In this document: one piece after another, positions 5,466 to 59,546 of the stretch
How positions within the stretch are numbered: the first letter of the stretch is position 1
Layout: every line of letters begins with the position of its first letter
Source: Alphaproteobacteria bacterium
Lineage (GTDB): Bacteria; Pseudomonadota; Alphaproteobacteria; Micavibrionales; UBA2020
Direction: 5' to 3'
Length of the DNA stretch: 64,000 nt
NCBI GenBank assembly: GCA_021413445.1
Contig: JAIOQI010000056.1
Span: 5,730 to 69,729 of the forward strand
Position numbers and translations under genes: made by a program
Notes under the pieces: generated by a model
Told to the model about the DNA's origin: nothing
Databases searched by the model: none
Seen by the model: the letters and a program-made list of their open reading frames with translations, nothing else

Positions 5466-6218
5466 ATGGGGAAGAAATACAAGGTTTCCAGCAGCCGCAA
5501 TGACCGTGCCTCGAATGTGCAGACCGTGCATCCGTTGTTCGGCTCCACTAACGGCTGGGATCCGATGGAAGCGCTTGATGGCCGCCGCGACCAAAGCTAC
5601 GTGAAGAACGTCCGGCCCCGCACCGAAGGCCAGAAGAGGCTGATGGAGGCGATTGACACGCACAACCTCGTCCTGGCTATCGGCCCCGCCGGCACCGGCA
5701 AAACCTATCTCGCTATTTCCGCCGCCGTCGCCGCCTTCGAAAAAGGCAAGGTGGACCGCATCATCCTGGCGCGGCCCGCCGTCGAGGCCGGGGAGAGAAT
5801 AGGCTTCCTGCCCGGGGATTTGCAGGACAAAATGGCGCCCTACCTGCGCCCGCTCTATGATGCGCTGAACGACCGCATCGGCATCAAGCGCCTCAAGAAC
5901 CTGCTTGATACCGGCGAAATTGAAATCGCGCCGATCGGCTACATGCGGGGACGCACGCTGAACAATGCCTTCGTGGTGATCGACGAGGCGCAGAACTGCA
6001 CCTATAGCCAGATCAAGATGATCGTCAGCCGCTTAGGGTGGAACGCCACGATGGTCATCACCGGCGACCCCGACCAGAGCGATTTGCTGGACGGCATTTC
6101 CGGCCTCGGCGACATGGCGAAAAAGCTGGACACGGTCGAAGGCATCGCCGTCGAATACCTGCGCGACACCGACATCGTCCGCCACCCGCTGGTGGCCAAG
6201 ATGCTGAGCGTGATTTAG
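5466..6218 (+). CDS. phoH: PhoH-like ATPase
   Basis: 250 aa. Walker A GPAGTGKTYLA and Walker B VVIDEAQN. Confidence 0.9.
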   Translation: MGKKYKVSSSRNDRASNVQTVHPLFGSTNGWDPMEALDGRRDQSYVKNVRPRTEGQKRLMEAIDTHNLVLAIGPAGTGKTYLAISAAVAAFEKGKVDRIILARPAVEAGERIGFLPGDLQDKMAPYLRPLYDALNDRIGIKRLKNLLDTGEIEIAPIGYMRGRTLNNAFVVIDEAQNCTYSQIKMIVSRLGWNATMVITGDPDQSDLLDGISGLGDMAKKLDTVEGIAVEYLRDTDIVRHPLVAKMLSVI

Positions 6219-6377: not shown

Positions 6378-8945
6378 ATGCGTTGGACGCGGTTTTATAC
6401 ACAGGCGGGGCGTGACATCTTCAACGGTGTGCGGTTTCGCAGCGTGTCGAGCGAACAGCAGCTGGAATATATCGTGCCCCAGCGCTGGAACCAGGCCGCC
6501 GTCGATGTCCTGCTGGAGAAGGTTTTTTACCCGGAAGCCCTGCCATCCCTGACGAAAAAGGTGGCAGAGGCGGGGGTTCCCGCCTGGCTCTGGCGGAGCG
6601 AGGTCGATGACACGGGGCTCGACAGCATTTCGGCGGAATGGCGCTACCGCCACGAGCAGGACATCCGCGAGGTCTTGCACCGCATGGCCGGGGCGCTCAC
6701 CTACCGGGCGTGGAAAAACGGCCTGTTTCCCGCTGAGGCCGACGCCGAAGTTTTCTATGACGAGCTGCGCTATATTTTTCTCCACCAAATCGCCGCGCCG
6801 GAGCTGGAACAGTGGGGATTGCTGGGGCTGGACTGGGCTTACGGCCTGACGGATGCCGCCGCTTTCATTCCCCGCCATCGCATTGTTCCCTTTGAAACCG
6901 ACAAGCCCCATGCCCTGAAGCGCATGAAAATCCTGGGCGATACGCTGGCGCTGGAGAACACCACCCTCTCTGCGTCGCCGAAAACCGGCGTGACCCTGCC
7001 GATTGAAAATATCGACAGCCCCGCCTTCATCGCCTGGAAAAGGGACTGCGACCTCCGGCAGGTCGCGGAAAGCCTCGGCCAGCGCATGCTGCAAACAGCA
7101 GCTTACCATGTGATGGATGCCTGCGACCGCGACAGCTTTTTCGGCTTCGACCCGGCGCACAACCCGAGGCTTTCCCGGGCCATGGACGAGGCGCGGCAGT
7201 CGGGGCTGTCCGAGGCGGCGATCCGCATGGCCATCAGTTACGCGGAGCAGGGCTATGAGGAAATTTCTTTCCCCGTTCCCGAAGAAGACCAGGCTGCTGG
7301 CCAATGCCTCAAGACCGTCCTGTCCGTGCCCGATGACTTTGTCGAGGCGGCGCTGACGGGGCACAGCATTTTGCTGTATGAAGCGGGCGAGCCCCAGCGC
7401 CATTATCCGGCGCAGAAGTTATGGGACGGGCTGGCGGAAGCCGTCTGGTCGTCGGGCGAGCCGGCGGTTTCCTTCCGCAGCAGCATCGAGTCCGCCAATG
7501 TTACCGGGCAGCCTTTATTCTGCGATACCACCGGCGGGTTTGTTTTCGTGGCCGGCAGTGAAGCGCCTTCCGCGACGGTCAATCTGCTCGCTTTCGCCCG
7601 TTTTGAGGGAGAGAGCGTCATCGACACGGACGCCCTACAGCATGTCGCGCGTATCCTAACTGTGGCGCTGGATGCCGTCTCCGGCGGCGGGGAATACCGC
7701 CCGCTCATGCTCGGCCTGACGAATATCGCAGCCGTGCTGATGGGCAGGGGGATCGCCTATGACAGCGATGCCGGACGCACGGCGGCGGCGCTGGCGGCGG
7801 CGCTGCTATCGGGCTGCGCTTATCAAACCTCGGCGGAAATAGCGGCGGAGAAGGGGGCCTTCCCGGCTTATGCCCCCCGCGCCAAAATATTCTTGCAGAA
7901 CATCAAGGACAAGCTGGCGGCGCTGGCCGGTACGGCTTTTTTGCAAAAGGGGATGACGCGCCGACCGGCGCAGATCCGGACGACGCTCTGTCCTGATAGC
8001 GCGCTGGTCGATGCGGTGAAACAGGCATGGGAGAGCGCCTATCGCACCGGCAAGGAGACCGGCTTCCGCCACGCGCACCTGACGGGGATCGACACGGACC
8101 CGGCGGTGCAGGCGCTCCTGAACGGGCAGACGCAGGACATCATGCCTTCATCCGCGCTGGTGCGCTTTGAGGGGTATTTTTCCGATACGCTCGAAGGGGC
8201 GCAGCTCTACGGCAAGAAACTGAACCCAATGGCGCCCCGCGCGCTTTCCCGTCTCGGCTATACGGTCGCCGAGCGCGAAGACATCCATTTTTACGCGGTC
8301 GGGCACGGCACGCTGCTGGATGCGCCCCATATCAACCACAGGAGCCTGCGTGAAAAAGGCTTTCATCAGGCGGCGCTGGATGCGGTGGAATCCGCTCTCG
8401 CCGCGGCGCTGCATATCCGTTACGCCTTCAACAAGTGGACGCTGGGCGAGGAGTTCTGCCGCCGGGTCCTCGGTTTTTCGGCGGAAGAGCTGGACAGCGG
8501 CACCTTCGACATGCTCGCGGCCTTAGGCTTTTCGGAAGACCATATCGAGGCGGCGAATATTTACTGCTGCGGCACGATGACGTTTGAGGGCGCGCCGCAC
8601 CTGAAGCCGGAGCATCTCGCCGTTTTCGACTGCGTGGCCCCTGCCGCCGCCTTCGGCGTGCGCCGCGTTTCCGCGCAAGCGCAGGTCAAGATGCAGGCGG
8701 TGCTGGAAACCTTCCTCTCCGGCGCCGTTGCCCATACTGTCCTGCTCAGCCATCCCGCCACGATTGAAGATGTGCAAAAACTGCTGCTGACGGGCTGGGA
8801 ACTCGGCGTGAAGTGCTTAAGGCTCTACCGCGATAGCTGTTCCCTGCTGCATCCGCTGGTGCTGCCGGCAATCAAAACTGAAACAGTGAAAGTGAAAGAA
8901 GAAGAGGAGTCCCTGCCATGTCCCAAGCAATCCATAACCGCCTGA
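6378..8945 (+). CDS. class II (B12-type) ribonucleotide reductase-like protein, divergent and truncated, active-site motifs not conserved
   Basis: 855 aa. Colinear with remembered NrdJ blocks: FYDELRYIFLHQIAAPE, AVGHGTLLDAPHINHRSLREKGF, EAANIYCCGTMTFEGAPHLKPEHLAVFDC, RLYRDS. The NPCSE, ACNL and SKTIN positions are substituted, and the usual C-terminal ~300+ aa are absent. Confidence 0.75.
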   Translation: MRWTRFYTQAGRDIFNGVRFRSVSSEQQLEYIVPQRWNQAAVDVLLEKVFYPEALPSLTKKVAEAGVPAWLWRSEVDDTGLDSISAEWRYRHEQDIREVLHRMAGALTYRAWKNGLFPAEADAEVFYDELRYIFLHQIAAPELEQWGLLGLDWAYGLTDAAAFIPRHRIVPFETDKPHALKRMKILGDTLALENTTLSASPKTGVTLPIENIDSPAFIAWKRDCDLRQVAESLGQRMLQTAAYHVMDACDRDSFFGFDPAHNPRLSRAMDEARQSGLSEAAIRMAISYAEQGYEEISFPVPEEDQAAGQCLKTVLSVPDDFVEAALTGHSILLYEAGEPQRHYPAQKLWDGLAEAVWSSGEPAVSFRSSIESANVTGQPLFCDTTGGFVFVAGSEAPSATVNLLAFARFEGESVIDTDALQHVARILTVALDAVSGGGEYRPLMLGLTNIAAVLMGRGIAYDSDAGRTAAALAAALLSGCAYQTSAEIAAEKGAFPAYAPRAKIFLQNIKDKLAALAGTAFLQKGMTRRPAQIRTTLCPDSALVDAVKQAWESAYRTGKETGFRHAHLTGIDTDPAVQALLNGQTQDIMPSSALVRFEGYFSDTLEGAQLYGKKLNPMAPRALSRLGYTVAEREDIHFYAVGHGTLLDAPHINHRSLREKGFHQAALDAVESALAAALHIRYAFNKWTLGEEFCRRVLGFSAEELDSGTFDMLAALGFSEDHIEAANIYCCGTMTFEGAPHLKPEHLAVFDCVAPAAAFGVRRVSAQAQVKMQAVLETFLSGAVAHTVLLSHPATIEDVQKLLLTGWELGVKCLRLYRDSCSLLHPLVLPAIKTETVKVKEEEESLPCPKQSITA

Positions 8946-51466: not shown

Positions 51467-53003
51467 GGGGCAGGAGAGGATCCTTTCCCCCGCCGCCCTT
51501 AAATTCCTGGAGGGGATCGAGAGGAAGTTCGGCGCGCGCCGCCGCGCCTTGCTGGATGATCGCGTCAAACGGCAGCAGGAGCTGGACAAAACCGGCACGC
51601 TGGATTTTCCGGCAGAGACGGCGGGGATCCGCGCCGCCGACTGGTCGATCCGCCCCATCCCCGACGAGCTGCAGGACCGCCGCGTGGAAATCACCGGCCC
51701 GGTCGAGCGCAAGATGGTGATTAATGCCCTCAACTCGGGCGCCAACGTCTTCATGGCGGATTTCGAGGATTCCAACACCCCGACCTGGGCCAACCAGATC
51801 AACGGCCAGATCAACCTGCTCGACGCCAACCTCGGCACGATCAGCTTTCACGATCTGTCCTCCGGCAAAGATTACCTCCTGAAGCAAAAGCACGCCATCC
51901 TGATGGTGCGGCCGCGCGGACTGCACATGGAGGAAAAACACCTGACGCTGGAAGGGAAATATTTTTCGGCGTCGTTTTTCGATTTCGGCCTTTACCTGTT
52001 CCACAACGTCCAAGTTTTGATGGATAAGGGCTCCGGCCCTTATTTTTATCTGCCCAAGCTGGAAAGCTATCATGAGGCGCGGCTGTGGAATGATGTCCTG
52101 TCCTATGCGGAAGACACTTTGGGGCTGGCGCGGGGGACGATCCGCGTCACGGTGCTGATCGAGACGATCACCGCCGCCTTCCAGATGGACGAAATCCTGT
52201 CCGAGCTCCGCGACCATATCACCGGGCTGAACTGCGGGCGCTGGGATTATATTTTCAGTTTCATCAAGTGTTTTGCCAGCCATAAGGATTTCGTTTTTCC
52301 GGACCGCGACGATCTGGCGATGACCTGCCCTTTCCTCCACTCTTACAGCCTGAACCTGATTAAAACCTGCCACCGCCGCAAGGCGCATGCGATGGGCGGC
52401 ATGGCGGCGCAGATTCCGGTCAAGAACGACGAAGAGGCGAACCGCGCCGCCATGGAGAAGGTGACTGCCGACAAGGAGCGCGAGGCAGCGGACGGTCACG
52501 ACGGCACCTGGGTCGCGCATCCGGGCTTGGTGCAGAAGGCGCGCGAGATCTTCAGTCACGCCATGCCGGGCGCCAACCAGATCGGCAAGCCGAGGCGCGA
52601 TCCGCATATCACCGCGCAGGACCTGCTGGCCATCCCCTCGGGGTCGATCACCGAGGAGGGGGTGCGCAGGAACATCAATGTCGGGCTGCTGTATTTGCGC
52701 GCCTGGCTGAGCGGCAACGGCTGCGTGCCGATCCATCACCAGATGGAAGACGCCGCGACGGCGGAAATTTCACGCACCCAGCTCTGGCAGTGGCGCCGCC
52801 ACAAGGCGAAGCTGAAGGACGGCCGGGTGATCGACGACGCGCTGATGGAAACCTTCCTGAAAGAAGAGGAGGACAAGCTGGGCGGCGATAGGTATTCGCG
52901 CGATGCGGCATCCCTGTTCCATCATCTGGTGATGTCGCCGGCGCTGGAGGATTTTTTAACGACCAAGGCCTATGACATGGTGCTTAATTATGAAGGGGAG
53001 TGA
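51435..53003 (+). CDS. aceB: malate synthase A
   Basis: 522 aa. Block VLIETITAAFQMDEILSELRDHITGLNCGRWDYIFS is typical of malate synthase A. Confidence 0.85.
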   Translation: MTVTVNAPRVRGQERILSPAALKFLEGIERKFGARRRALLDDRVKRQQELDKTGTLDFPAETAGIRAADWSIRPIPDELQDRRVEITGPVERKMVINALNSGANVFMADFEDSNTPTWANQINGQINLLDANLGTISFHDLSSGKDYLLKQKHAILMVRPRGLHMEEKHLTLEGKYFSASFFDFGLYLFHNVQVLMDKGSGPYFYLPKLESYHEARLWNDVLSYAEDTLGLARGTIRVTVLIETITAAFQMDEILSELRDHITGLNCGRWDYIFSFIKCFASHKDFVFPDRDDLAMTCPFLHSYSLNLIKTCHRRKAHAMGGMAAQIPVKNDEEANRAAMEKVTADKEREAADGHDGTWVAHPGLVQKAREIFSHAMPGANQIGKPRRDPHITAQDLLAIPSGSITEEGVRRNINVGLLYLRAWLSGNGCVPIHHQMEDAATAEISRTQLWQWRRHKAKLKDGRVIDDALMETFLKEEEDKLGGDRYSRDAASLFHHLVMSPALEDFLTTKAYDMVLNYEGE

Positions 53004-53005
53004 AC

Positions 53006-54202
53006 ATGGATATTGATTTTTCAGCCTGGCTGGGCCTAGCGCTGCGCTGGTTTCATCTGATGGCCGGGATCATGTGGATCGGCACGTCGTTTTATTTCAT
53101 CTGGCTGCAGAATGCCCTGAAACCCCCTCAATCAAAAGAGGACAAGAAGGCGGGCGTCGCGGGCGAGGCATGGCTGGTGCACGGCGGCGGTTTTTACCAC
53201 AACAAGAAATACGCCGTCGCCCCCGAGCACATGCCGGAGGACCTGCATTGGTTCAAATGGGAAGCCTATTTCACCTGGATCAGCGGCATGTTGCTGCTGG
53301 GGCTGGTTTATTACTACGGCGCCAGCCTCTACCTGATCGACCGCACCAAGAACAACCTCGACCCGTCAGAGGCGGTGCTGATCGGCCTCGCTTTTATTAT
53401 CGGCGGGTGGTTTTTTTATGACGGCTTGTGCAAAACGAGTGTCGGCAAGAATAACGGGCTGTTCGGCCTGATCTGGTTTGCGGCGCTGACGGCGGCGGCC
53501 TATGCGCTGAACCAGTTCTTCTCGGGGCGCGGCGCGTTTATCCATGTCGGCGCCATTATCGGCACGGTGATGGCGGCCAATGTTTTCGCCATCATCATTC
53601 CCAACCAGAAAAAAGTCGTCGCCTCCCTGCTGGCCGGGGAAAAGCCCGACCCCTATCTCGGTAAAAAGGCCGGACAGCGTTCGCTGCATAACAACTACAT
53701 GACCTTGCCGGTGCTGCTCATCATGATCAGCAACCATTATCCGATGTTGTTCGGCAACCCCCATAACTGGCTGATATTGGCAGGGTTGAGCGTGGCGGCC
53801 TGGCTGATCCGCCATTTCTTCAACCTGGATGAAATGGGGATTAAAAATTACTGGTACGCGGCGGCGGGGGTTGCCGGGTTTGTCCTGGTGATGCTGCTGG
53901 TGTCCGGCGGCGGGAAGCCCCCGGCCTCCGCGACCGGGCAGGTTTCGCCCGCGGAAGTGCGCCAGATCGTCCGCACCCATTGCAGCGCCTGCCACAGCGA
54001 CACACCGACCTATGAAGGTATTACTGAAGCGCCGACGGGCGTGATGTTCGACACCATGGAAGAGATTAAGAAGTATGCCCCGCGCATCATCGTCCGCGCT
54101 GTTCAGGACGGCACGATGCCGCTCGGCAATACCACAAATATGACGGACGAGGAGCGGAAGAAACTGGGGGTTGGGTTGAGAGAGCTGTCTCCCTCACCCT
54201 AG
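53006..54202 (+). CDS. puuD: urate hydroxylase PuuD (membrane, cytochrome c domain)
   Basis: About 398 aa. Multi-TM DUF989-like N-region and a C-terminal haem site CSACHS. The ORF opens at GTG 53000. Confidence 0.8.
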   Translation: MDIDFSAWLGLALRWFHLMAGIMWIGTSFYFIWLQNALKPPQSKEDKKAGVAGEAWLVHGGGFYHNKKYAVAPEHMPEDLHWFKWEAYFTWISGMLLLGLVYYYGASLYLIDRTKNNLDPSEAVLIGLAFIIGGWFFYDGLCKTSVGKNNGLFGLIWFAALTAAAYALNQFFSGRGAFIHVGAIIGTVMAANVFAIIIPNQKKVVASLLAGEKPDPYLGKKAGQRSLHNNYMTLPVLLIMISNHYPMLFGNPHNWLILAGLSVAAWLIRHFFNLDEMGIKNYWYAAAGVAGFVLVMLLVSGGGKPPASATGQVSPAEVRQIVRTHCSACHSDTPTYEGITEAPTGVMFDTMEEIKKYAPRIIVRAVQDGTMPLGNTTNMTDEERKKLGVGLRELSPSP

Positions 54203-54237: not shown

Positions 54238-54891
54238 TTACATCCGCAGGCGTTTTGCTGCCTGTTTCATGTCTGCTGAAGTCTCATTCAACATCGCTGA
54301 CCTCTCTTGCATGGCTAAGTGTGTATTTTCAAGGGCTGTTTGAATCCTCCCGAACGACTCCGTTAGTTTTTCAATATCCAACGGCTTTTTAAGGTTGGAA
54401 AGATATTTATTAAGAGCTTCTGTATTTTCAGTTTGGCGTTCTTCCGGGGTCTTTTCCCTTGTAAAAAAATCTTTTATAGAAAGAGACGTCGCTTCGTCAA
54501 AGCCTTTGCAAAAATTAAAAACAGAGTCCTTCTTTCGCAACTCAACGCTCTCATCGACGCCCTTCAGTGTCGTTTTGACCGCGCGCCCGGCATTTTTGCA
54601 CCATTCGCCCAAGACTTTAACCCCGCCTTTAAGGCCGAATTGAGATACTAAACCGCCGACTGACATGACGCCGGTACTGATTGCCAAGATTGGTAAGACC
54701 GCAGAGGCGATCATGAAAGGGGTGGAAAGCGCAACCGCTAAACCGCATACGGCAGCCATACCAAAGACAGCTCTAACAAGCATACTGGCTATACTCCCGT
54801 TATAGGTAGAGAAATGGTATTGTTCTATCAGCTCGCCAAAGTTACTTTTGTATTTCTCAACGGACAGATTGTTTCTGAATTTCTTAAACAT
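54238..54891 (-). CDS. Inc-like membrane protein, paralogue D (AT-rich)
   Basis: Start at MFKKFRNN (aaggggag RBS). Same architecture as 9406-11607: N-helical region, ~55-aa bilobed hydrophobic domain, coiled C-terminus. Confidence 0.55.
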   Translation of the reverse strand: MFKKFRNNLSVEKYKSNFGELIEQYHFSTYNGSIASMLVRAVFGMAAVCGLAVALSTPFMIASAVLPILAISTGVMSVGGLVSQFGLKGGVKVLGEWCKNAGRAVKTTLKGVDESVELRKKDSVFNFCKGFDEATSLSIKDFFTREKTPEERQTENTEALNKYLSNLKKPLDIEKLTESFGRIQTALENTHLAMQERSAMLNETSADMKQAAKRLRM

Positions 54892-55007
54892 GATCGGCTC
54901 CCCTTTGATTGAAAGTATAAAAGAGCCTATCATGATTTATGTAATATGTAAATATATATTTTATAAATCATTGTTTAAATTGAATTTTTTCAGTGTGATG
55001 GCAGTGC

Positions 55008-55100: not shown

Positions 55101-55451
55101 TTAGCTCCCCCGGTAGGTGCTATACCCGAATGGCGAGACCAGCAGCGGCACGTGATAATGCGCCCCCGCGTCGGCGATGCCGAAGTTGATGACGACCGTG
55201 CCGAGAAACGGCGTCTTGGCGAGCTTGACGCCTTTGGCCTTGAAATAGGCGGCGACGTCGAATTCGAGGCGGTAGGTTCCGGCCTTCAAATCCTTGCCCG
55301 CAAGAATGGGCGCGTCGCAGCGCCCGTCGGCATTGGTCTTGGTCTTGACCAGCAGGGTATCTTTTTTGCCGCACTTATAAAGGCGCAGGGCGATGCCCGC
55401 AGCCGGACAGCCGTGAGCGGTGTCCAGCACATGCGTTGTTAACTTGCCCAT
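55101..55451 (-). CDS. hiuH: 5-hydroxyisourate hydrolase (transthyretin-like)
   Basis: About 116 aa from MGKLTTHVLD. C-terminal signature YSTYRGS. Confidence 0.9.
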   Translation of the reverse strand: MGKLTTHVLDTAHGCPAAGIALRLYKCGKKDTLLVKTKTNADGRCDAPILAGKDLKAGTYRLEFDVAAYFKAKGVKLAKTPFLGTVVINFGIADAGAHYHVPLLVSPFGYSTYRGS

Positions 55452-55504
55452 TTCTTCACTCCTTGCTAAAATCAACCATCATTTTCCTCCATTATAGGGC
55501 TTTC

Positions 55505-56410
55505 ATGGAAAAAAACACCCCCAAAGATACGCGCGATTATGCCGGCTATGGCGAAAATCCCCCCGACCCGAAATGGCCGGGCGGGGCGCGGATCGCGGTG
55601 CAGATCGTGCTTAATTATGAGGAGGGCGGGGAGAACTGCGTCCTGAACGGTGACAGCGGCTCGGAAACCTTCCTCTCGGAAATCATCGGCGCGGCGAAAT
55701 ACGAAGGCGCGCGGCACATGAGCATGGAATCCCTCTATGAATACGGCAGCCGCGCCGGAGTGTGGCGGCTGCTGCGGCTGTTCAAGAAATATAACATTCC
55801 GGTGACGATTTTCGCCGTGGCGCTGGCGCTGGAAAAATATCCGGAGCTTGCCAGGGCCTTTGTTCGCGACGGGCATGAAATCTGCTCGCACGGCTACCGC
55901 TGGATCAACTATCAGGACATCGACGAAAAGACCGAGCGCGAACATATGCGCAAGGCCATCGAGATCATCCAGCGCCTGACCGGCGAGCGTCCGCTCGGCT
56001 GGTACACCGGGCGCACCGGCCCCAACACGCGGCGGCTGGTGGCGGAGGAGGGCGGGTTCCTCTACGATGCCGACGATTACAGCGACGACCTGCCGTTCTG
56101 GGTCAGGACGGAAAGCAAGAAGCAGTTGATCGTGCCCTATACGCTGGACGTCAATGACATGCGCTTCGCCACCATGCAGGGCTTCAATTCCGGCGAGCAG
56201 TATTTCACCTACCTGAAAGACACCTTCGACACGCTCTATGCCGAGGGCGGGAAGATGATGTCGGTGGGGCTGCACTGCCGCATCGTCGGCAGGCCGGGGC
56301 GCATCGCGGCGTTGGAGCGGTTCCTGAAATATATCCAGAGCCACGACAAAGTCTGGATCTGCCGCCGCATCGACATAGCTAAGCACTGGCACAAGCATCA
56401 TGCGGGATAA
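55505..56410 (+). CDS. puuE: allantoinase PuuE (polysaccharide deacetylase family)
   Basis: About 301 aa starting MEKNTPKDTRDYAGYGENPPDPKWPGGARIAVQIVLNYEEGGE. Confidence 0.85.
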   Translation: MEKNTPKDTRDYAGYGENPPDPKWPGGARIAVQIVLNYEEGGENCVLNGDSGSETFLSEIIGAAKYEGARHMSMESLYEYGSRAGVWRLLRLFKKYNIPVTIFAVALALEKYPELARAFVRDGHEICSHGYRWINYQDIDEKTEREHMRKAIEIIQRLTGERPLGWYTGRTGPNTRRLVAEEGGFLYDADDYSDDLPFWVRTESKKQLIVPYTLDVNDMRFATMQGFNSGEQYFTYLKDTFDTLYAEGGKMMSVGLHCRIVGRPGRIAALERFLKYIQSHDKVWICRRIDIAKHWHKHHAG

Positions 56411-56870
56411 GCAGGAATTTTTGAAAAAATACGGCGGCATCTACGAACATTCGCCGTGGATCGCCGAAGCGGGTTTTGCGGCGGGGGCGGAAACGCTCGA
56501 TGACATCCATGCCGCGATGAAAGCCGCCGTCACCGCCGCCAGCCGCGACAAAAAACTGGCGCTGATCTGCGCCCACCCCGACCTCGCCTGCGCCGAACGG
56601 AACCTGACGGCGGAATCAACCTCCGAACAGCAGGGCGCGGGGCTGAAAGAGTGCTCACCGGAGGAATTCGCGGAATTTCAAAAGCTGAACGCCGAATACA
56701 AAAAGAAATTCGGCTTCCCTTTCATCATCGCCGTGAAAGGTCTCAACCGGATGGACATCCTGCAAGCCTTCCGCAGCCGCATCCACAACGATGCCGCCGC
56801 TGAGTTCGACACAGCGCTGGAGCAGATACACAGAATCTCTTTGTTTAGGTTGAGGGACTTATGCAAGTAA
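56400..56870 (+). CDS. uraD: OHCU decarboxylase
   Basis: 156 aa. Block YGGIYEHSPWIAE and ...AHPDL.... Confidence 0.85.
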   Translation: MRDKQEFLKKYGGIYEHSPWIAEAGFAAGAETLDDIHAAMKAAVTAASRDKKLALICAHPDLACAERNLTAESTSEQQGAGLKECSPEEFAEFQKLNAEYKKKFGFPFIIAVKGLNRMDILQAFRSRIHNDAAAEFDTALEQIHRISLFRLRDLCK

Positions 56871-57934
56871 ATTCAATTCATGGTATTCCAAGGAAGGGAG
56901 CTTTTTCATCAAAAGAGAATGCTTCTACATGGGTACACATATTTACCAGTTATGGAATACCCGCCAGCGAGTTCCAAACTCTTTATAAAAAGCTTATGAC
57001 GAGTGGTGATGGGCAGTTACATCTGCCGAGACCTATTTGGATGGCCTTCTCCGACTTAGAAAACTTTTCTGTACCTCAAATACACTTTGAAGCCTTTTCA
57101 GGACAGCATGGAGAAATGATTTTATATCAACATAATTATGATGTTATTTTACCCAAATCCAATTTTGTTTATCTAAGCACCCCTTATCGAGACGGTGAGA
57201 AAATTTATGATGATGCAGAAGCTATTCTCGAAAAAATAAGAGGGATATCCTGCTTACTCTTCGGCAGAAATTTTCTTTATCAGAAAATAATGTCCGCTGA
57301 AATTTATAATCATCCATCAAACCGAATCGAACAAATCTCAAAAAGTACTAAAATTTTTGCAATAGCGGATGGTCCGTATGTAGGTGTTAACAATCTTCAT
57401 GAATTGGAAGAAATTGCTAAAGCCATTGCTGAAATTCAAGATGAAGATGAACGTAGAAGGGTGGATAGCGCCATACATTATTTTGTTCGTGGCATCGAAA
57501 ATAGCGATACATTTCTATACTTTTGGACCGCAACAGAAATTTTATGTGGAAAAAAAGAAAATAATGTAAAATTTATCCAGAATGCTTTGCAAGCTATTTA
57601 TCCTGGTTTTGATGTTAATCAATTTTTTGGTTTTAAGCAGTTGAAGGGTTTAAGAGATAATTGGCTTCATCGGGGAATAATTCCAGATATTAGTTCTGAT
57701 ACAATTCGTTATTTGCAATTAATGTTTTTGGATCTTTTGCGTTATAAGGCTGGGCTGGCTACCAAGAACCATCTTCAGGCGATATGTTCTTCCGCCGATT
57801 TTAACTTATCAGATATTGGATTATCTTCGAATGGTCTTGGACGGGATCGTGGAGCTTTCAGGTGGGCTAGTCCTGAAGAAAGAAAAATTAGAAGCTCCCT
57901 ATGGTGTAAAGCTGCGATAGAGTCCGAGACTTAG
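56861..57934 (+). CDS. AT-rich hypothetical protein with C-terminal HEPN-like helical domain (Rx4H)
   Basis: 357 aa. The helical C-half carries LKGLRDNWLHRG (R265-x4-H270, nt 57653-57670). Strongly AT-richer than its neighbours. Confidence 0.5.
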   Translation: MQVNSIHGIPRKGAFSSKENASTWVHIFTSYGIPASEFQTLYKKLMTSGDGQLHLPRPIWMAFSDLENFSVPQIHFEAFSGQHGEMILYQHNYDVILPKSNFVYLSTPYRDGEKIYDDAEAILEKIRGISCLLFGRNFLYQKIMSAEIYNHPSNRIEQISKSTKIFAIADGPYVGVNNLHELEEIAKAIAEIQDEDERRRVDSAIHYFVRGIENSDTFLYFWTATEILCGKKENNVKFIQNALQAIYPGFDVNQFFGFKQLKGLRDNWLHRGIIPDISSDTIRYLQLMFLDLLRYKAGLATKNHLQAICSSADFNLSDIGLSSNGLGRDRGAFRWASPEERKIRSSLWCKAAIESET

Positions 57935-58992
57935 GTTTCCATCCCATGCACCTTCAACCCATGAATCCCGCCGTTCGGGTAGTGCATATAGAGGATATGC
58001 GTCACGGGAGCGGCGTCAGGCAGCGGAAAGCGGTGGAAGGTGTCCGGCGTCAGGGCGGCGAAGGGCAGCAGCGGCTGCCACGGGCAGCCATCAGGCAGAT
58101 GCAGCTTGATCCTGAAGTTTTTTTCCGGCAGGTATTTCTGCTCCAGCATATAGGTCTGGAAATTTTCGGGCATGGCTTCTTTGCCGCTGCTGAAAACCAG
58201 CTTCCAGCGCGGGGCGAGTTTCATCAGCGCGTCGATTTTATCTTCTGAAGTGTTAAGCGCGAAAACATGGCAGCTCAGCGGCGCATTCAGCCGGTGCAGG
58301 TAGGTATCGACAACAATCTCTTCCAGCTTTGCGGGTTTTTTGAGGTGGAACAGCGCCTGCTCGCCGAAACCGGTGCGGGCGCTTTCCCAGCCGAACATGT
58401 GCATTTCCTTGCGGTTGCCCGCGACAGCGCGTGCCGGGTCGCCGTAATGGACATTCGAGATGTGGCTGATCTTTGCTCCTTCGAGCAGGTTGACTTGTTC
58501 GATCGGAGTTCCCATCGGCGTGCCGAAGAGATTGACCCTTGCGATGCCGCCTTCGTAGTAGCATTCGACCAGGCATTCCGTCGCCGGGGTCGGCGGAATG
58601 TCAAAGCTGTGTTCTGAATCGGGCTTCAGGGCTGCACGGTTGATGACTTGTTTGTTCTGTCCGGTGGTTTCGTCCTTCAGGTACACGGAAACGGCGCGCA
58701 CCTGGTTGCCGGTGTACCATTTGGTGCTGATGGTGAGGCTGCTCACTTCCGCGCGCGTCTTGAGCCCGATCAGGAACCAGTTGTGGGCGTCATGGTCGTA
58801 AGAGAACGCCTGTTCCTTTTCCAGCACCGTCGTCGCCTTGTGGCGGCGCGATTCGATGCCCCAGTATTTCGCGCCCATGTGGGTGAAATCGCCACGGCAA
58901 TCCTTCGGCTCGTCCGGCAGCACCACTTCGTGCGGGTTGGTGAAGGACGAATCCGAATAGGCGATCAGGAAGGCGGGCAGAGGATGTGTCAT
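57931..58992 (-). CDS. alc: allantoicase (divergent)
   Basis: 353 aa with two allantoicase repeats: GIESRR...WYTGN...EGGIARVNLFG, and GWESAR...NGGIHGLKVHG. Confidence 0.7.
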   Translation of the reverse strand: MTHPLPAFLIAYSDSSFTNPHEVVLPDEPKDCRGDFTHMGAKYWGIESRRHKATTVLEKEQAFSYDHDAHNWFLIGLKTRAEVSSLTISTKWYTGNQVRAVSVYLKDETTGQNKQVINRAALKPDSEHSFDIPPTPATECLVECYYEGGIARVNLFGTPMGTPIEQVNLLEGAKISHISNVHYGDPARAVAGNRKEMHMFGWESARTGFGEQALFHLKKPAKLEEIVVDTYLHRLNAPLSCHVFALNTSEDKIDALMKLAPRWKLVFSSGKEAMPENFQTYMLEQKYLPEKNFRIKLHLPDGCPWQPLLPFAALTPDTFHRFPLPDAAPVTHILYMHYPNGGIHGLKVHGMET

Positions 58993-59054: not shown

Positions 59055-59546
59055 ATGAAAACCCGAATTTTAAAACCCGAGCCGCTGACCGCCGCCGCTT
59101 TCGCGCCTTACGGCGACGTGATCGAATGCGCCGAGGGCAAGGTGCAGAGCATCAACTACGGCAACACGGCCTGCTTCCATGATCTGGCGCAGCTCAACCT
59201 GACGGCGGAAGGCGGGCGGCCGATTGTCCGCATTTTCCGTTCGACACCGCTGCCGCGCCCCATCCAGATTAAAATCATGGAGCGGCATCCGCTCTCCAGC
59301 CAGGCGTTTTACCCTTTGAGCGGCCGCCCCTATCTGGTGGTGGTGGCGGAAAAGGGCGACTTTGACCCGAAAAAAATCAGGGTGTTTCTGGCGGGGCCCC
59401 ATCAGGGCGTAAACTACCATGCCGGAACCTGGCATCATTTCAGCCTCGCGCTGGATGCTGTTTCGGAATTCCTGGTCATCGACCGCGGCGGGCCGGGAAA
59501 AAACTGCGACGAAGTAACACTCGACTCCATCTCTATAGACTACTGA
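59055..59546 (+). CDS. allA: ureidoglycolate lyase
   Basis: 163 aa. N-terminus ...LKPEPLTAAAFAPYGDVIE, typical of AllA. Confidence 0.85.
   Translation: MKTRILKPEPLTAAAFAPYGDVIECAEGKVQSINYGNTACFHDLAQLNLTAEGGRPIVRIFRSTPLPRPIQIKIMERHPLSSQAFYPLSGRPYLVVVAEKGDFDPKKIRVFLAGPHQGVNYHAGTWHHFSLALDAVSEFLVIDRGGPGKNCDEVTLDSISIDY

Follow-up and report, generated by a model that had tools for sequence, protein, structure and literature searches.

The 64,000-nucleotide stretch analysed here (the window) covers positions 5,730 to 69,729 of contig JAIOQI010000056.1, from an alphaproteobacterium of the Micavibrionales, and the gene in question is an open reading frame (ORF) at 56861-57934 that is lodged between the purine-breakdown genes uraD and alc. 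Comparison with its homologues shows the ORF to be intact and of full length. An earlier reading of the DNA sequence alone (the sequence-only reading) had described it as an AT-rich, HEPN-like gene acquired horizontally by a metabolic operon and as a candidate abortive-infection module. Here we report its locus and origin, the family to which it belongs, the relation of its C-terminal domain to HEPN proteins and the genomic contexts of its relatives; the coordinates of the features are collected in Table 1.

The uraD-alc junction and the origin of the ORF

At its ends the ORF shares 10 nt with uraD and 4 nt with the convergent allantoicase gene alc, the two stop codons of the latter pair being interlocked as TTAG. 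Its GC content is 0.368, with a minimum of 0.333 in a 400-nt window, versus 0.546 and 0.591 in the 3-kb flanks; both overlaps and the AT-richness of the 357-aa ORF are as the sequence-only reading had given them. The neighbours form a ureide-pathway (purine breakdown) cluster, every gene of which is confirmed by Pfam. A Shine-Dalgarno-like site lies 3 nt upstream of the ATG within the last uraD codons, and a sequence scan found neither a promoter-like site before the ORF nor a terminator after uraD; the only upstream promoter-like site on the same strand (55444-55472) precedes puuE. The GAGGGA site, the 10-nt overlap with uraD and the lack of a promoter-like site of its own suggest that the ORF is co-transcribed and translationally coupled with puuE-uraD. 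Gene overlaps are frequent across the window, so the tight fit of the ORF matches the style of a compact genome. The host assembly is ~2.1 Mb and 87% complete, small and tightly packed, and carries a single copy of the gene.

The protein is missing from all 11 congener genomes. It occurs in one genome out of 49 additional relatives (at 29% identity) and in one other genome among 400 of the phylum; for the phylum, the count is 2 of 401. In two congeners, G007 and G010, uraD and alc are also convergent, with a different content in the gap between them: ~970 bp holding two unrelated small ORFs, a first of 161 aa and a second, within AT-rich sequence, of 100 aa, in G007 (L011 517-1493), and ~400 bp holding a small membrane ORF in G010 (L014 1939-2336). 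Since the same junction carries different cargo in congeners, it is a variable spot and behaves like an accessory-gene hot spot. The uraD and alc genes of relatives align up to the last residues of the window genes, indicating that the foreign DNA is essentially the ORF alone. Replacement of the uraD C-terminus by the insertion was considered and rejected, as uraD of the relatives can be aligned as far as residue 151-154 of 156 and ends in a similar tail. No flanking repeats (terminal inverted repeats, target-site duplications, tandem or terminal repeats) were found bracketing the insertion. A discrete mobile element (insertion sequence, transposon or integron cassette) was likewise rejected, because terminal inverted repeats and target-site duplications are missing from the flanks and both neighbours are metabolic genes; transposases lie beside only one relative (L018). 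In six of the seven loci measured, the gene has a lower GC content than its host, for example 0.39 vs 0.61, 0.41 vs 0.64 and 0.29 vs 0.47. Horizontal acquisition of the ORF, which the sequence-only reading had put forward, is supported by its absence from the 11 congeners, the differing junction content in two of them and its AT-richness.

Table 1. Positions in the window of the ORF, of the domains and motifs of its product, and of the surrounding genes
Feature	Position	Strand	Remarks
Complete ORF, 357 aa (stop included)	56861-57934	+	ATG start; unannotated family of ~330-aa two-domain proteins
N-terminal alpha/beta domain, residues 1-150	56861-57310	+	six strands, two helices; pLDDT mostly 83-97
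Linker, residues 151-172	57311-57376	+	low confidence; ends in conserved P166...G171-P172 (consensus; window has F166)
All-alpha C-terminal domain, residues 173-322	57377-57826	+	probable HEPN-type domain; helices 176-310
Helix F218-L228 (FLYFWTATEIL)	57512-57544	+	consensus F-x-x-Y-W-x-A-x-E-x-L; aligns to first conserved ApeA HEPN helix, Ec4ApeA ~370-386
R265-D-N-W-L-H270, putative catalytic R-x4-H	57653-57670	+	R265 at 57653-57655, H270 at 57668-57670
Post-motif helix with conserved R283, Y284, Q286, D291	57707-57745	+	consensus ERYxQLxFLDLLR; from the family alignment
AT-rich tract, GC ~0.33-0.41	56838-57934	.	marks the foreign segment; occupies the whole uraD-alc stop-to-stop space, zero non-coding DNA
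Shine-Dalgarno-like GAGGGA	56852-56857	+
PuuD-type urate oxidase	53000-54202		Pfam
HIU hydrolase	55101-55475	-	Pfam
PuuE-type allantoinase (puuE)	55436-56410	+	Pfam
OHCU decarboxylase (uraD)	56400-56870	+	Pfam, PF09349
Allantoicase (alc)	57931-58992	-	Pfam, PF03561
Ureidoglycolate lyase	59055-59546		Pfam

The protein family and its conserved residues

A word-indexed search retrieved five relatives only, at 29-62% identity, and an alignment-based word search added one member. An exhaustive phmmer search of 1.84 billion representatives yielded 307 proteins at E<=1e-3, of which 104 reach E<=1e-10; with few exceptions the 307 are 320-360 aa long and align end to end. Against the PDB, phmmer of the window protein gave noise. 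Judged from its sequences, this is a real, sparse family that is unannotated in every library used.

AlphaFold, run with the family alignment, models the whole protein with a predicted local distance difference test (pLDDT) score of 88.2 and a predicted template modelling (pTM) score of 0.87. The model places the strands of the N-terminal domain at residues 22-29, 59-64, 69-80, 86-97, 102-111 and 142-149 and its helices at 35-45 and 119-134. The conserved positions of this domain, with the window residue in brackets where it differs, are W14 (A), F15, Y28 (F), G84, Y102 (F), P108, G135 and N137. No relatives of the N-domain were detected, its profile giving filamin noise against the PDB, and the ~170 N-terminal residues that the sequence-only reading had left unassigned stay without a match there. 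Whole-chain Foldseek searches of the PDB and BFVD returned AcrB/Cmr noise only, at template modelling (TM) scores of 0.1-0.15. We presume that the N-domain is a sensor or regulatory domain. The C-terminal domain modelled alone is all-alpha, with a pLDDT of 89.6; its helices bear out the helical C-terminal half predicted earlier.

Conservation was counted in an alignment of 113 diverse members with 16-30% identity to the query. The family has a single invariant residue, R265 (113/113); H270 is found in 106 members and G272 in 111, and H270, G272, W222, D291, P172, G135 and P108 are all at least 90% conserved. R265 and H270 are contained in LKGLRDNWLHRG (residues 261-272), and the preceding helices AIHYFVRGIE...FLYFWTATEIL span residues 204-228; both peptides had been quoted in the sequence-only reading and both are present. 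The consensus of the motif is [W/L]-R-[H/N/S/D]-[D/N]-phi-phi-H-x-G, with H, N, S or D at position +1, and it has the classical HEPN form R-[H/N/D]-x3-H, the conserved arginine and histidine standing at a spacing within R-x4-6-H. In shuffles of the window protein, R-x4-H is contained in 45% and R-x4-6-H in 84%; for a single sequence R-x4-H is thus within chance, and the motif was weighed by its conservation alone. The HEPN motif claimed earlier therefore holds as a conserved feature of the family, and its occurrence in the one sequence from which it had been read carries no weight.

Profile links between the C-terminal domain and HEPN proteins

The hidden Markov model (HMM) of the family was searched against 177,635 PDB sequences. 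Its top two matches are Ec4ApeA (9hxm, E=1.2e-4) and Ec3ApeA (9hxj, 5e-3), each made up of two colinear segments, 'R..LAL.....A...F..YW.A.E.L' at the start of the ApeA HEPN domain and then R-x4-H; the profile of the C-domain alone finds Ec4ApeA (1e-3) and then Ec1ApeA. The likeness to ApeA-type helices proposed from the sequence is thereby borne out in the family profile, in which the F..YW.A.E helix and R-x4-H are colinear with the ApeA HEPN domain. When the 113 members were compared singly with Pfam, three families were matched at E<=0.01 and two of them are HEPN families, HEPN_Apea (4.6e-4, one member) and RiboL-PSP-HEPN (7e-4); at E<=1, MauJ (seven members) and RiboL-PSP-HEPN (four members) come first. 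Against PADLOC the best match is Csx1 (two members, 4.7e-4), followed by PDC-M02A, and two CARF_HEPN models complete the top four rows; four members in total match Csx1 or CARF_HEPN models. When the family was compared with MauJ by hhalign, 151 colinear columns (query residues 126-297) aligned with E=0.007. A separate weak match places the start of the MauJ model on the first C-domain helices. These links to HEPN profiles are weak but coherent, and they make it quite probable that the C-domain belongs to the HEPN superfamily.

ApeA is a single-protein anti-phage tRNA anticodon nuclease, with structures 9hxm, 9hxj and 9hxn, that is activated through a ligand pocket between its N-terminal and HEPN domains, the infection cue being deoxydinucleotides (bioRxiv 10.64898/2026.01.26.701840). 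Like ApeA (HEPN_Apea PF18739 plus ApeA_NTD1 PF18862), the window protein is encoded by a partnerless single gene of patchy distribution and has an N-terminal non-catalytic region followed by a C-terminal HEPN-like R-x4-H; its first helix, F..YW.A.E.L, corresponds to F..YW.ALE.L in Ec4ApeA and is colinear with the catalytic helix in the same way. Unlike ApeA, it comprises 357 aa rather than ~430-620 aa, its ~150-aa alpha/beta N-domain is unrelated to NTD1/Mid (the N and Mid regions of ApeA take up ~300 aa), and the two conserved HEPN segments are separated by ~30 aa, whereas ApeA has an insertion of ~110 aa. No alignment of the N-domain to ApeA NTD1 was obtained, the full-length hhalign covering the catalytic helix region only. 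The window protein has no Pfam match to PF18739 or PF18862 and no match to PADLOC ApeA at E<=1. HEPN_Apea, which genuine ApeA proteins match with 44-103 bits, is reached by the single member mentioned above, and ApeA is absent from the PADLOC matches of the members. By these comparisons the window protein is ApeA-like in layout and is not a member of the ApeA family.

MauJ (PF17419) is an uncharacterised family named for a gene of a methylamine-utilisation cluster, and a literature search on it returned nothing relevant. The hhalign alignment with MauJ spans the last N-domain helix, the linker, both conserved helices and R-x4-H, and MauJ proteins carry an R-x4-H (GRCAIAHAN) and an F..F/Y..IE helix of their own; unlike the proteins studied here they are shorter, at 215-285 aa, with a smaller N-region. 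No member of our family reaches the curated MauJ cut-off (28 bits), and the best of the seven weak matches has E=0.014. In three MauJ-family loci, L028, L029 and L030 (genomes G544, G693 and G696), the R-x4-H is conserved after the 'F..F/Y..IE' helix and MauJ looks HEPN-like; we flag this Pfam family as probably HEPN-related. The ORF that adjoins the MauJ-family gene in L030 resembles an FMN-dependent glutamate-synthase-type enzyme.

Other HEPN proteins offer partial likenesses. RiboL-PSP-HEPN (PF18735) and the HEPN domains of CARF/Csx1/Csm6 proteins share the R-[N/H]-x3-H catalytic helix; unlike the CARF/Csx1/Csm6 proteins, the window protein has no CARF domain and no CRISPR neighbourhood, and all of these matches are below threshold. 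DARNA (PD-T7-3) is a single-protein HEPN tRNase that is activated by single-stranded DNA (ssDNA) bound to SSB and acts by abortive infection (bioRxiv 10.64898/2026.02.22.705581). It unites a HEPN RNase and a sensing domain in one polypeptide, an arrangement that is predicted here from sequence; in DARNA, unlike here, the HEPN domain is N-terminal (the opposite order), and the protein is 456 aa long and all-helical, with no sequence relation detected. HepT (7ae6/7ae8), a minimal four-helix HEPN protein, belongs to the two-gene toxin-antitoxin system HepT-MntA with its MNT antitoxin, whereas neither MNT nor another partner is found here.

Genomic contexts and a possible role in defence

Eleven contexts were read, the window included. 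Outside the purine-catabolism cluster of the window, the gene lies after the metH C-terminus (L001), after an amidohydrolase gene near mutL (L002), among small unknown ORFs (L007), beside Serpin and MerR (L023), on the hisD/aroA side (L031), after cobalamin genes and before a HI1420-type antitoxin-like gene (L032), and among housekeeping genes (L034). Three of the 11 contexts are PADLOC-confirmed defence neighbourhoods, so that placement in defence islands is occasional: L018 holds PDC-M38A/B (1e-100), a DrmC-like PLD, HNH and MazE-PIN together with three transposases; L022 (genome G416) holds AbiEii (2e-81) and a DUF4365/Aga-REase-like gene within 5 kb; and L033 holds a dCTP-deaminase defence gene (PADLOC 8e-126) and a Multi_ubiq-E2-E1/JAB operon. 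Neither a conserved partner gene nor a metabolic theme was found across the 11 contexts. A conserved upstream partner was considered for L001 and L002, in which the genes abut, and was rejected, as the MetH C-terminus and the amidohydrolase are mutually unrelated. The upstream gene is co-directional in 10 of the 11 contexts (one-sided binomial p=0.006), which suggests that the family gene is mostly carried as the last gene of a host transcription unit. For the downstream gene, the convergent orientation seen in 7 of 10 does not reach significance.

Two of these neighbourhoods contain further genes of note. At L033 2711-6812, the dCTP-deaminase-type gene stands beside a Multi_ubiq / Prok-E2_E / ThiF-JAB operon, of the ubiquitin-like conjugation kind that is implicated in phage defence. 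In L022, two high-GC ORFs at 6483-9161 (+) and 10620-13205 (-), of 892 and 861 aa and with no Pfam match, flank the family member.

It is proposed, as a modestly probable explanation, that the ORF encodes a horizontally acquired single protein combining a sensor with a HEPN RNase, and that its role lies in defence or abortive infection. Several observations weigh against this proposal. Compared by hmmscan with Pfam, NCBIfam, PADLOC and PHROG, the window protein matches no model, even at E<=0.1-1, and the PADLOC check suggested with the sequence-only reading accordingly did not call the gene. Lysine replaces H270 in 7 of the 113 members. With two family members as tblastn queries, no copies were found in 72,556 plasmids and 50,697 phage records, and in eight of the 11 contexts the neighbours are of an ordinary housekeeping kind. 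The alignments that link the family to ApeA by HMMER span ~45 + 30 residues. Comparison by hhalign with two self-built ApeA profiles fell short of significance (E=0.23 and 0.19), probably owing to the small number of sequences, four, in each profile; in these non-significant alignments R-x4-H lands on the R-x4-H of ApeA. Foldseek of the C-domain against the PDB gave no match at E<=0.001, and ApeA structures did not appear. The best non-significant chains are HEPN proteins, namely HepT 7ae6 (rank 1, E=2.6, TM 0.27) and Csm6 5yjc and 6tug (TM 0.37-0.40), and the best HEPN matches lie at E 2.6-9 and TM 0.27-0.40. The HEPN similarity anticipated earlier was accordingly recovered in weak profile matches and was not recovered as a significant structural match.

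A HEPN- or MauJ-like protein with a non-defence role, in RNA processing or as a regulatory or accessory protein that drifts between genomes and is here perhaps co-expressed with the ureide pathway, is an unlikely explanation. It would be consistent with MauJ being the most frequent weak Pfam match and aligning over 151 columns, with the metabolic cluster from which MauJ takes its name, with the housekeeping majority of contexts and with an ORF that is coupled to uraD translation and has no promoter-like site of its own. However, the contexts share no metabolic theme, ranging from purine catabolism, metH, cobalamin, mutL and hisD/aroA to defence islands, and the relation to MauJ supplies no mechanism. 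The very patchy distribution (2/401 phylum genomes, 0/11 congeners) and the foreign composition in 6/7 hosts fit an accessory conflict gene better.

Somewhat less likely still is that the C-domain is a non-HEPN helical bundle, in which the conserved R, H, G and D serve ligand binding or structure and the HEPN matches reflect convergent similarity between helices. The lack of significance in the Foldseek matches and in the hhalign comparison with ApeA, the shortness of the HMMER matches and the frequency of R-x4-H in shuffles would all agree with such a bundle. Against it, three different ApeA proteins are the top PDB matches of two profiles, with both segments in the correct order, Pfam and PADLOC independently give other HEPN families as the best weak matches, and the single invariant residue of the family is the arginine of the motif. 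We give little credence to the gene being the toxin of a toxin-antitoxin or addiction module, a selfish element and not an immune gene, whose antitoxin is an unrecognised small RNA or peptide or has been lost: HEPN toxins are frequent in such systems (HepT-MntA; AbiF with an RNA antitoxin), and an HI1420-type antitoxin-like gene follows one relative (L032) and MazE-PIN adjoins another (L018), but no adjacent gene is conserved across the contexts, in the window no free DNA is left on the two sides of the ORF to hold an antitoxin gene or RNA repeat array, and no repeats were found, in keeping with the earlier remark that no antitoxin-like partner is visible, and a conserved 150-aa N-domain fused to a nuclease is typical of self-regulated sensor-effectors.

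The proposal of a sensor joined to a HEPN RNase thus stands as the sequence-only reading had framed it, as a defence candidate, with profile similarity to HEPN, with R265 and H270 conserved in the homologues and with contexts that differ from one homologue to the next and show no link to purine metabolism. The mechanism that we infer, including RNase activity, dimerisation, substrate, trigger and the defence or abortive-infection phenotype, would run as follows. From its position at the 3' end of a puuE-uraD transcription unit, the gene would supply a protein whose C-domain (~173-322) dimerises and forms a composite RNase site from R265-x4-H270, by analogy with other HEPN proteins. The N-domain (1-150) would keep the dimeric or oligomeric nuclease dormant until an infection cue appears, which might be a phage protein, a nucleic acid or a small molecule. 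Sensing of the cue would release the R265/H270 site and cellular RNA would be cut, the likeliest target being tRNA anticodon loops, by analogy with ApeA, DARNA and PrrC; cleavage of tRNA would stop translation and so abort the infection. We further suggest, tentatively and with some doubt, that this is a new stand-alone anti-phage protein whose minimal ApeA-type HEPN RNase is gated by an alpha/beta sensor not seen before, and that MauJ, read until now as an accessory protein of methylamine utilisation, is a divergent branch of the same HEPN-sensor superfamily. A sensor and a HEPN domain in one protein are of a kind already known; what is new is a family without annotation in the libraries used and an N-domain without a detectable relative.

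Two other ORFs of the window deserve mention. A second AT-rich ORF at 54238-54933 (minus strand, 231 aa, GC ~0.40-0.47 vs ~0.58) lies between the genes for the PuuD-type urate oxidase and HIU hydrolase. The two genes are only ~3 nt apart in the congener G007 (L011), so this ORF is an insertion as well. Its product is hydrophobic in a central stretch and helical at the C-terminus, and searches of Pfam, NCBIfam, PADLOC and PHROG gave sub-threshold noise only (Latexin E=0.017; Rz-like spanin PHROG E=0.29). The ORF at 59549-61114 (plus strand, 521 aa) encodes a class II aminoacyl-tRNA-synthetase core of the EpmA/GenX (PoxA) type (PF00152, 2.6e-53, residues 15-322) with ankyrin repeats at the C-terminus (Ank_4 3e-13, Ank_2 3e-11), a fusion that is unusual for an enzyme of the EF-P lysylation type.

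The present picture of how a single polypeptide can both recognise infection and shut down translation comes from single-protein HEPN sensors, ApeA and DARNA among them. So far, every new sensor domain has brought to light another kind of infection cue, namely deoxydinucleotides in the case of ApeA and SSB-bound ssDNA in that of DARNA. Should the protein prove inactive, the finding would shrink to an ordinary orphan gene gained by horizontal transfer. The family offers a compact, confidently modelled protein of ~330 aa with an unassigned sensor domain and clear putative catalytic residues, and it is directly testable. The ORF itself illustrates how a compact genome may take in a defence-type gene, without spare DNA, where a metabolic operon meets a convergent gene.

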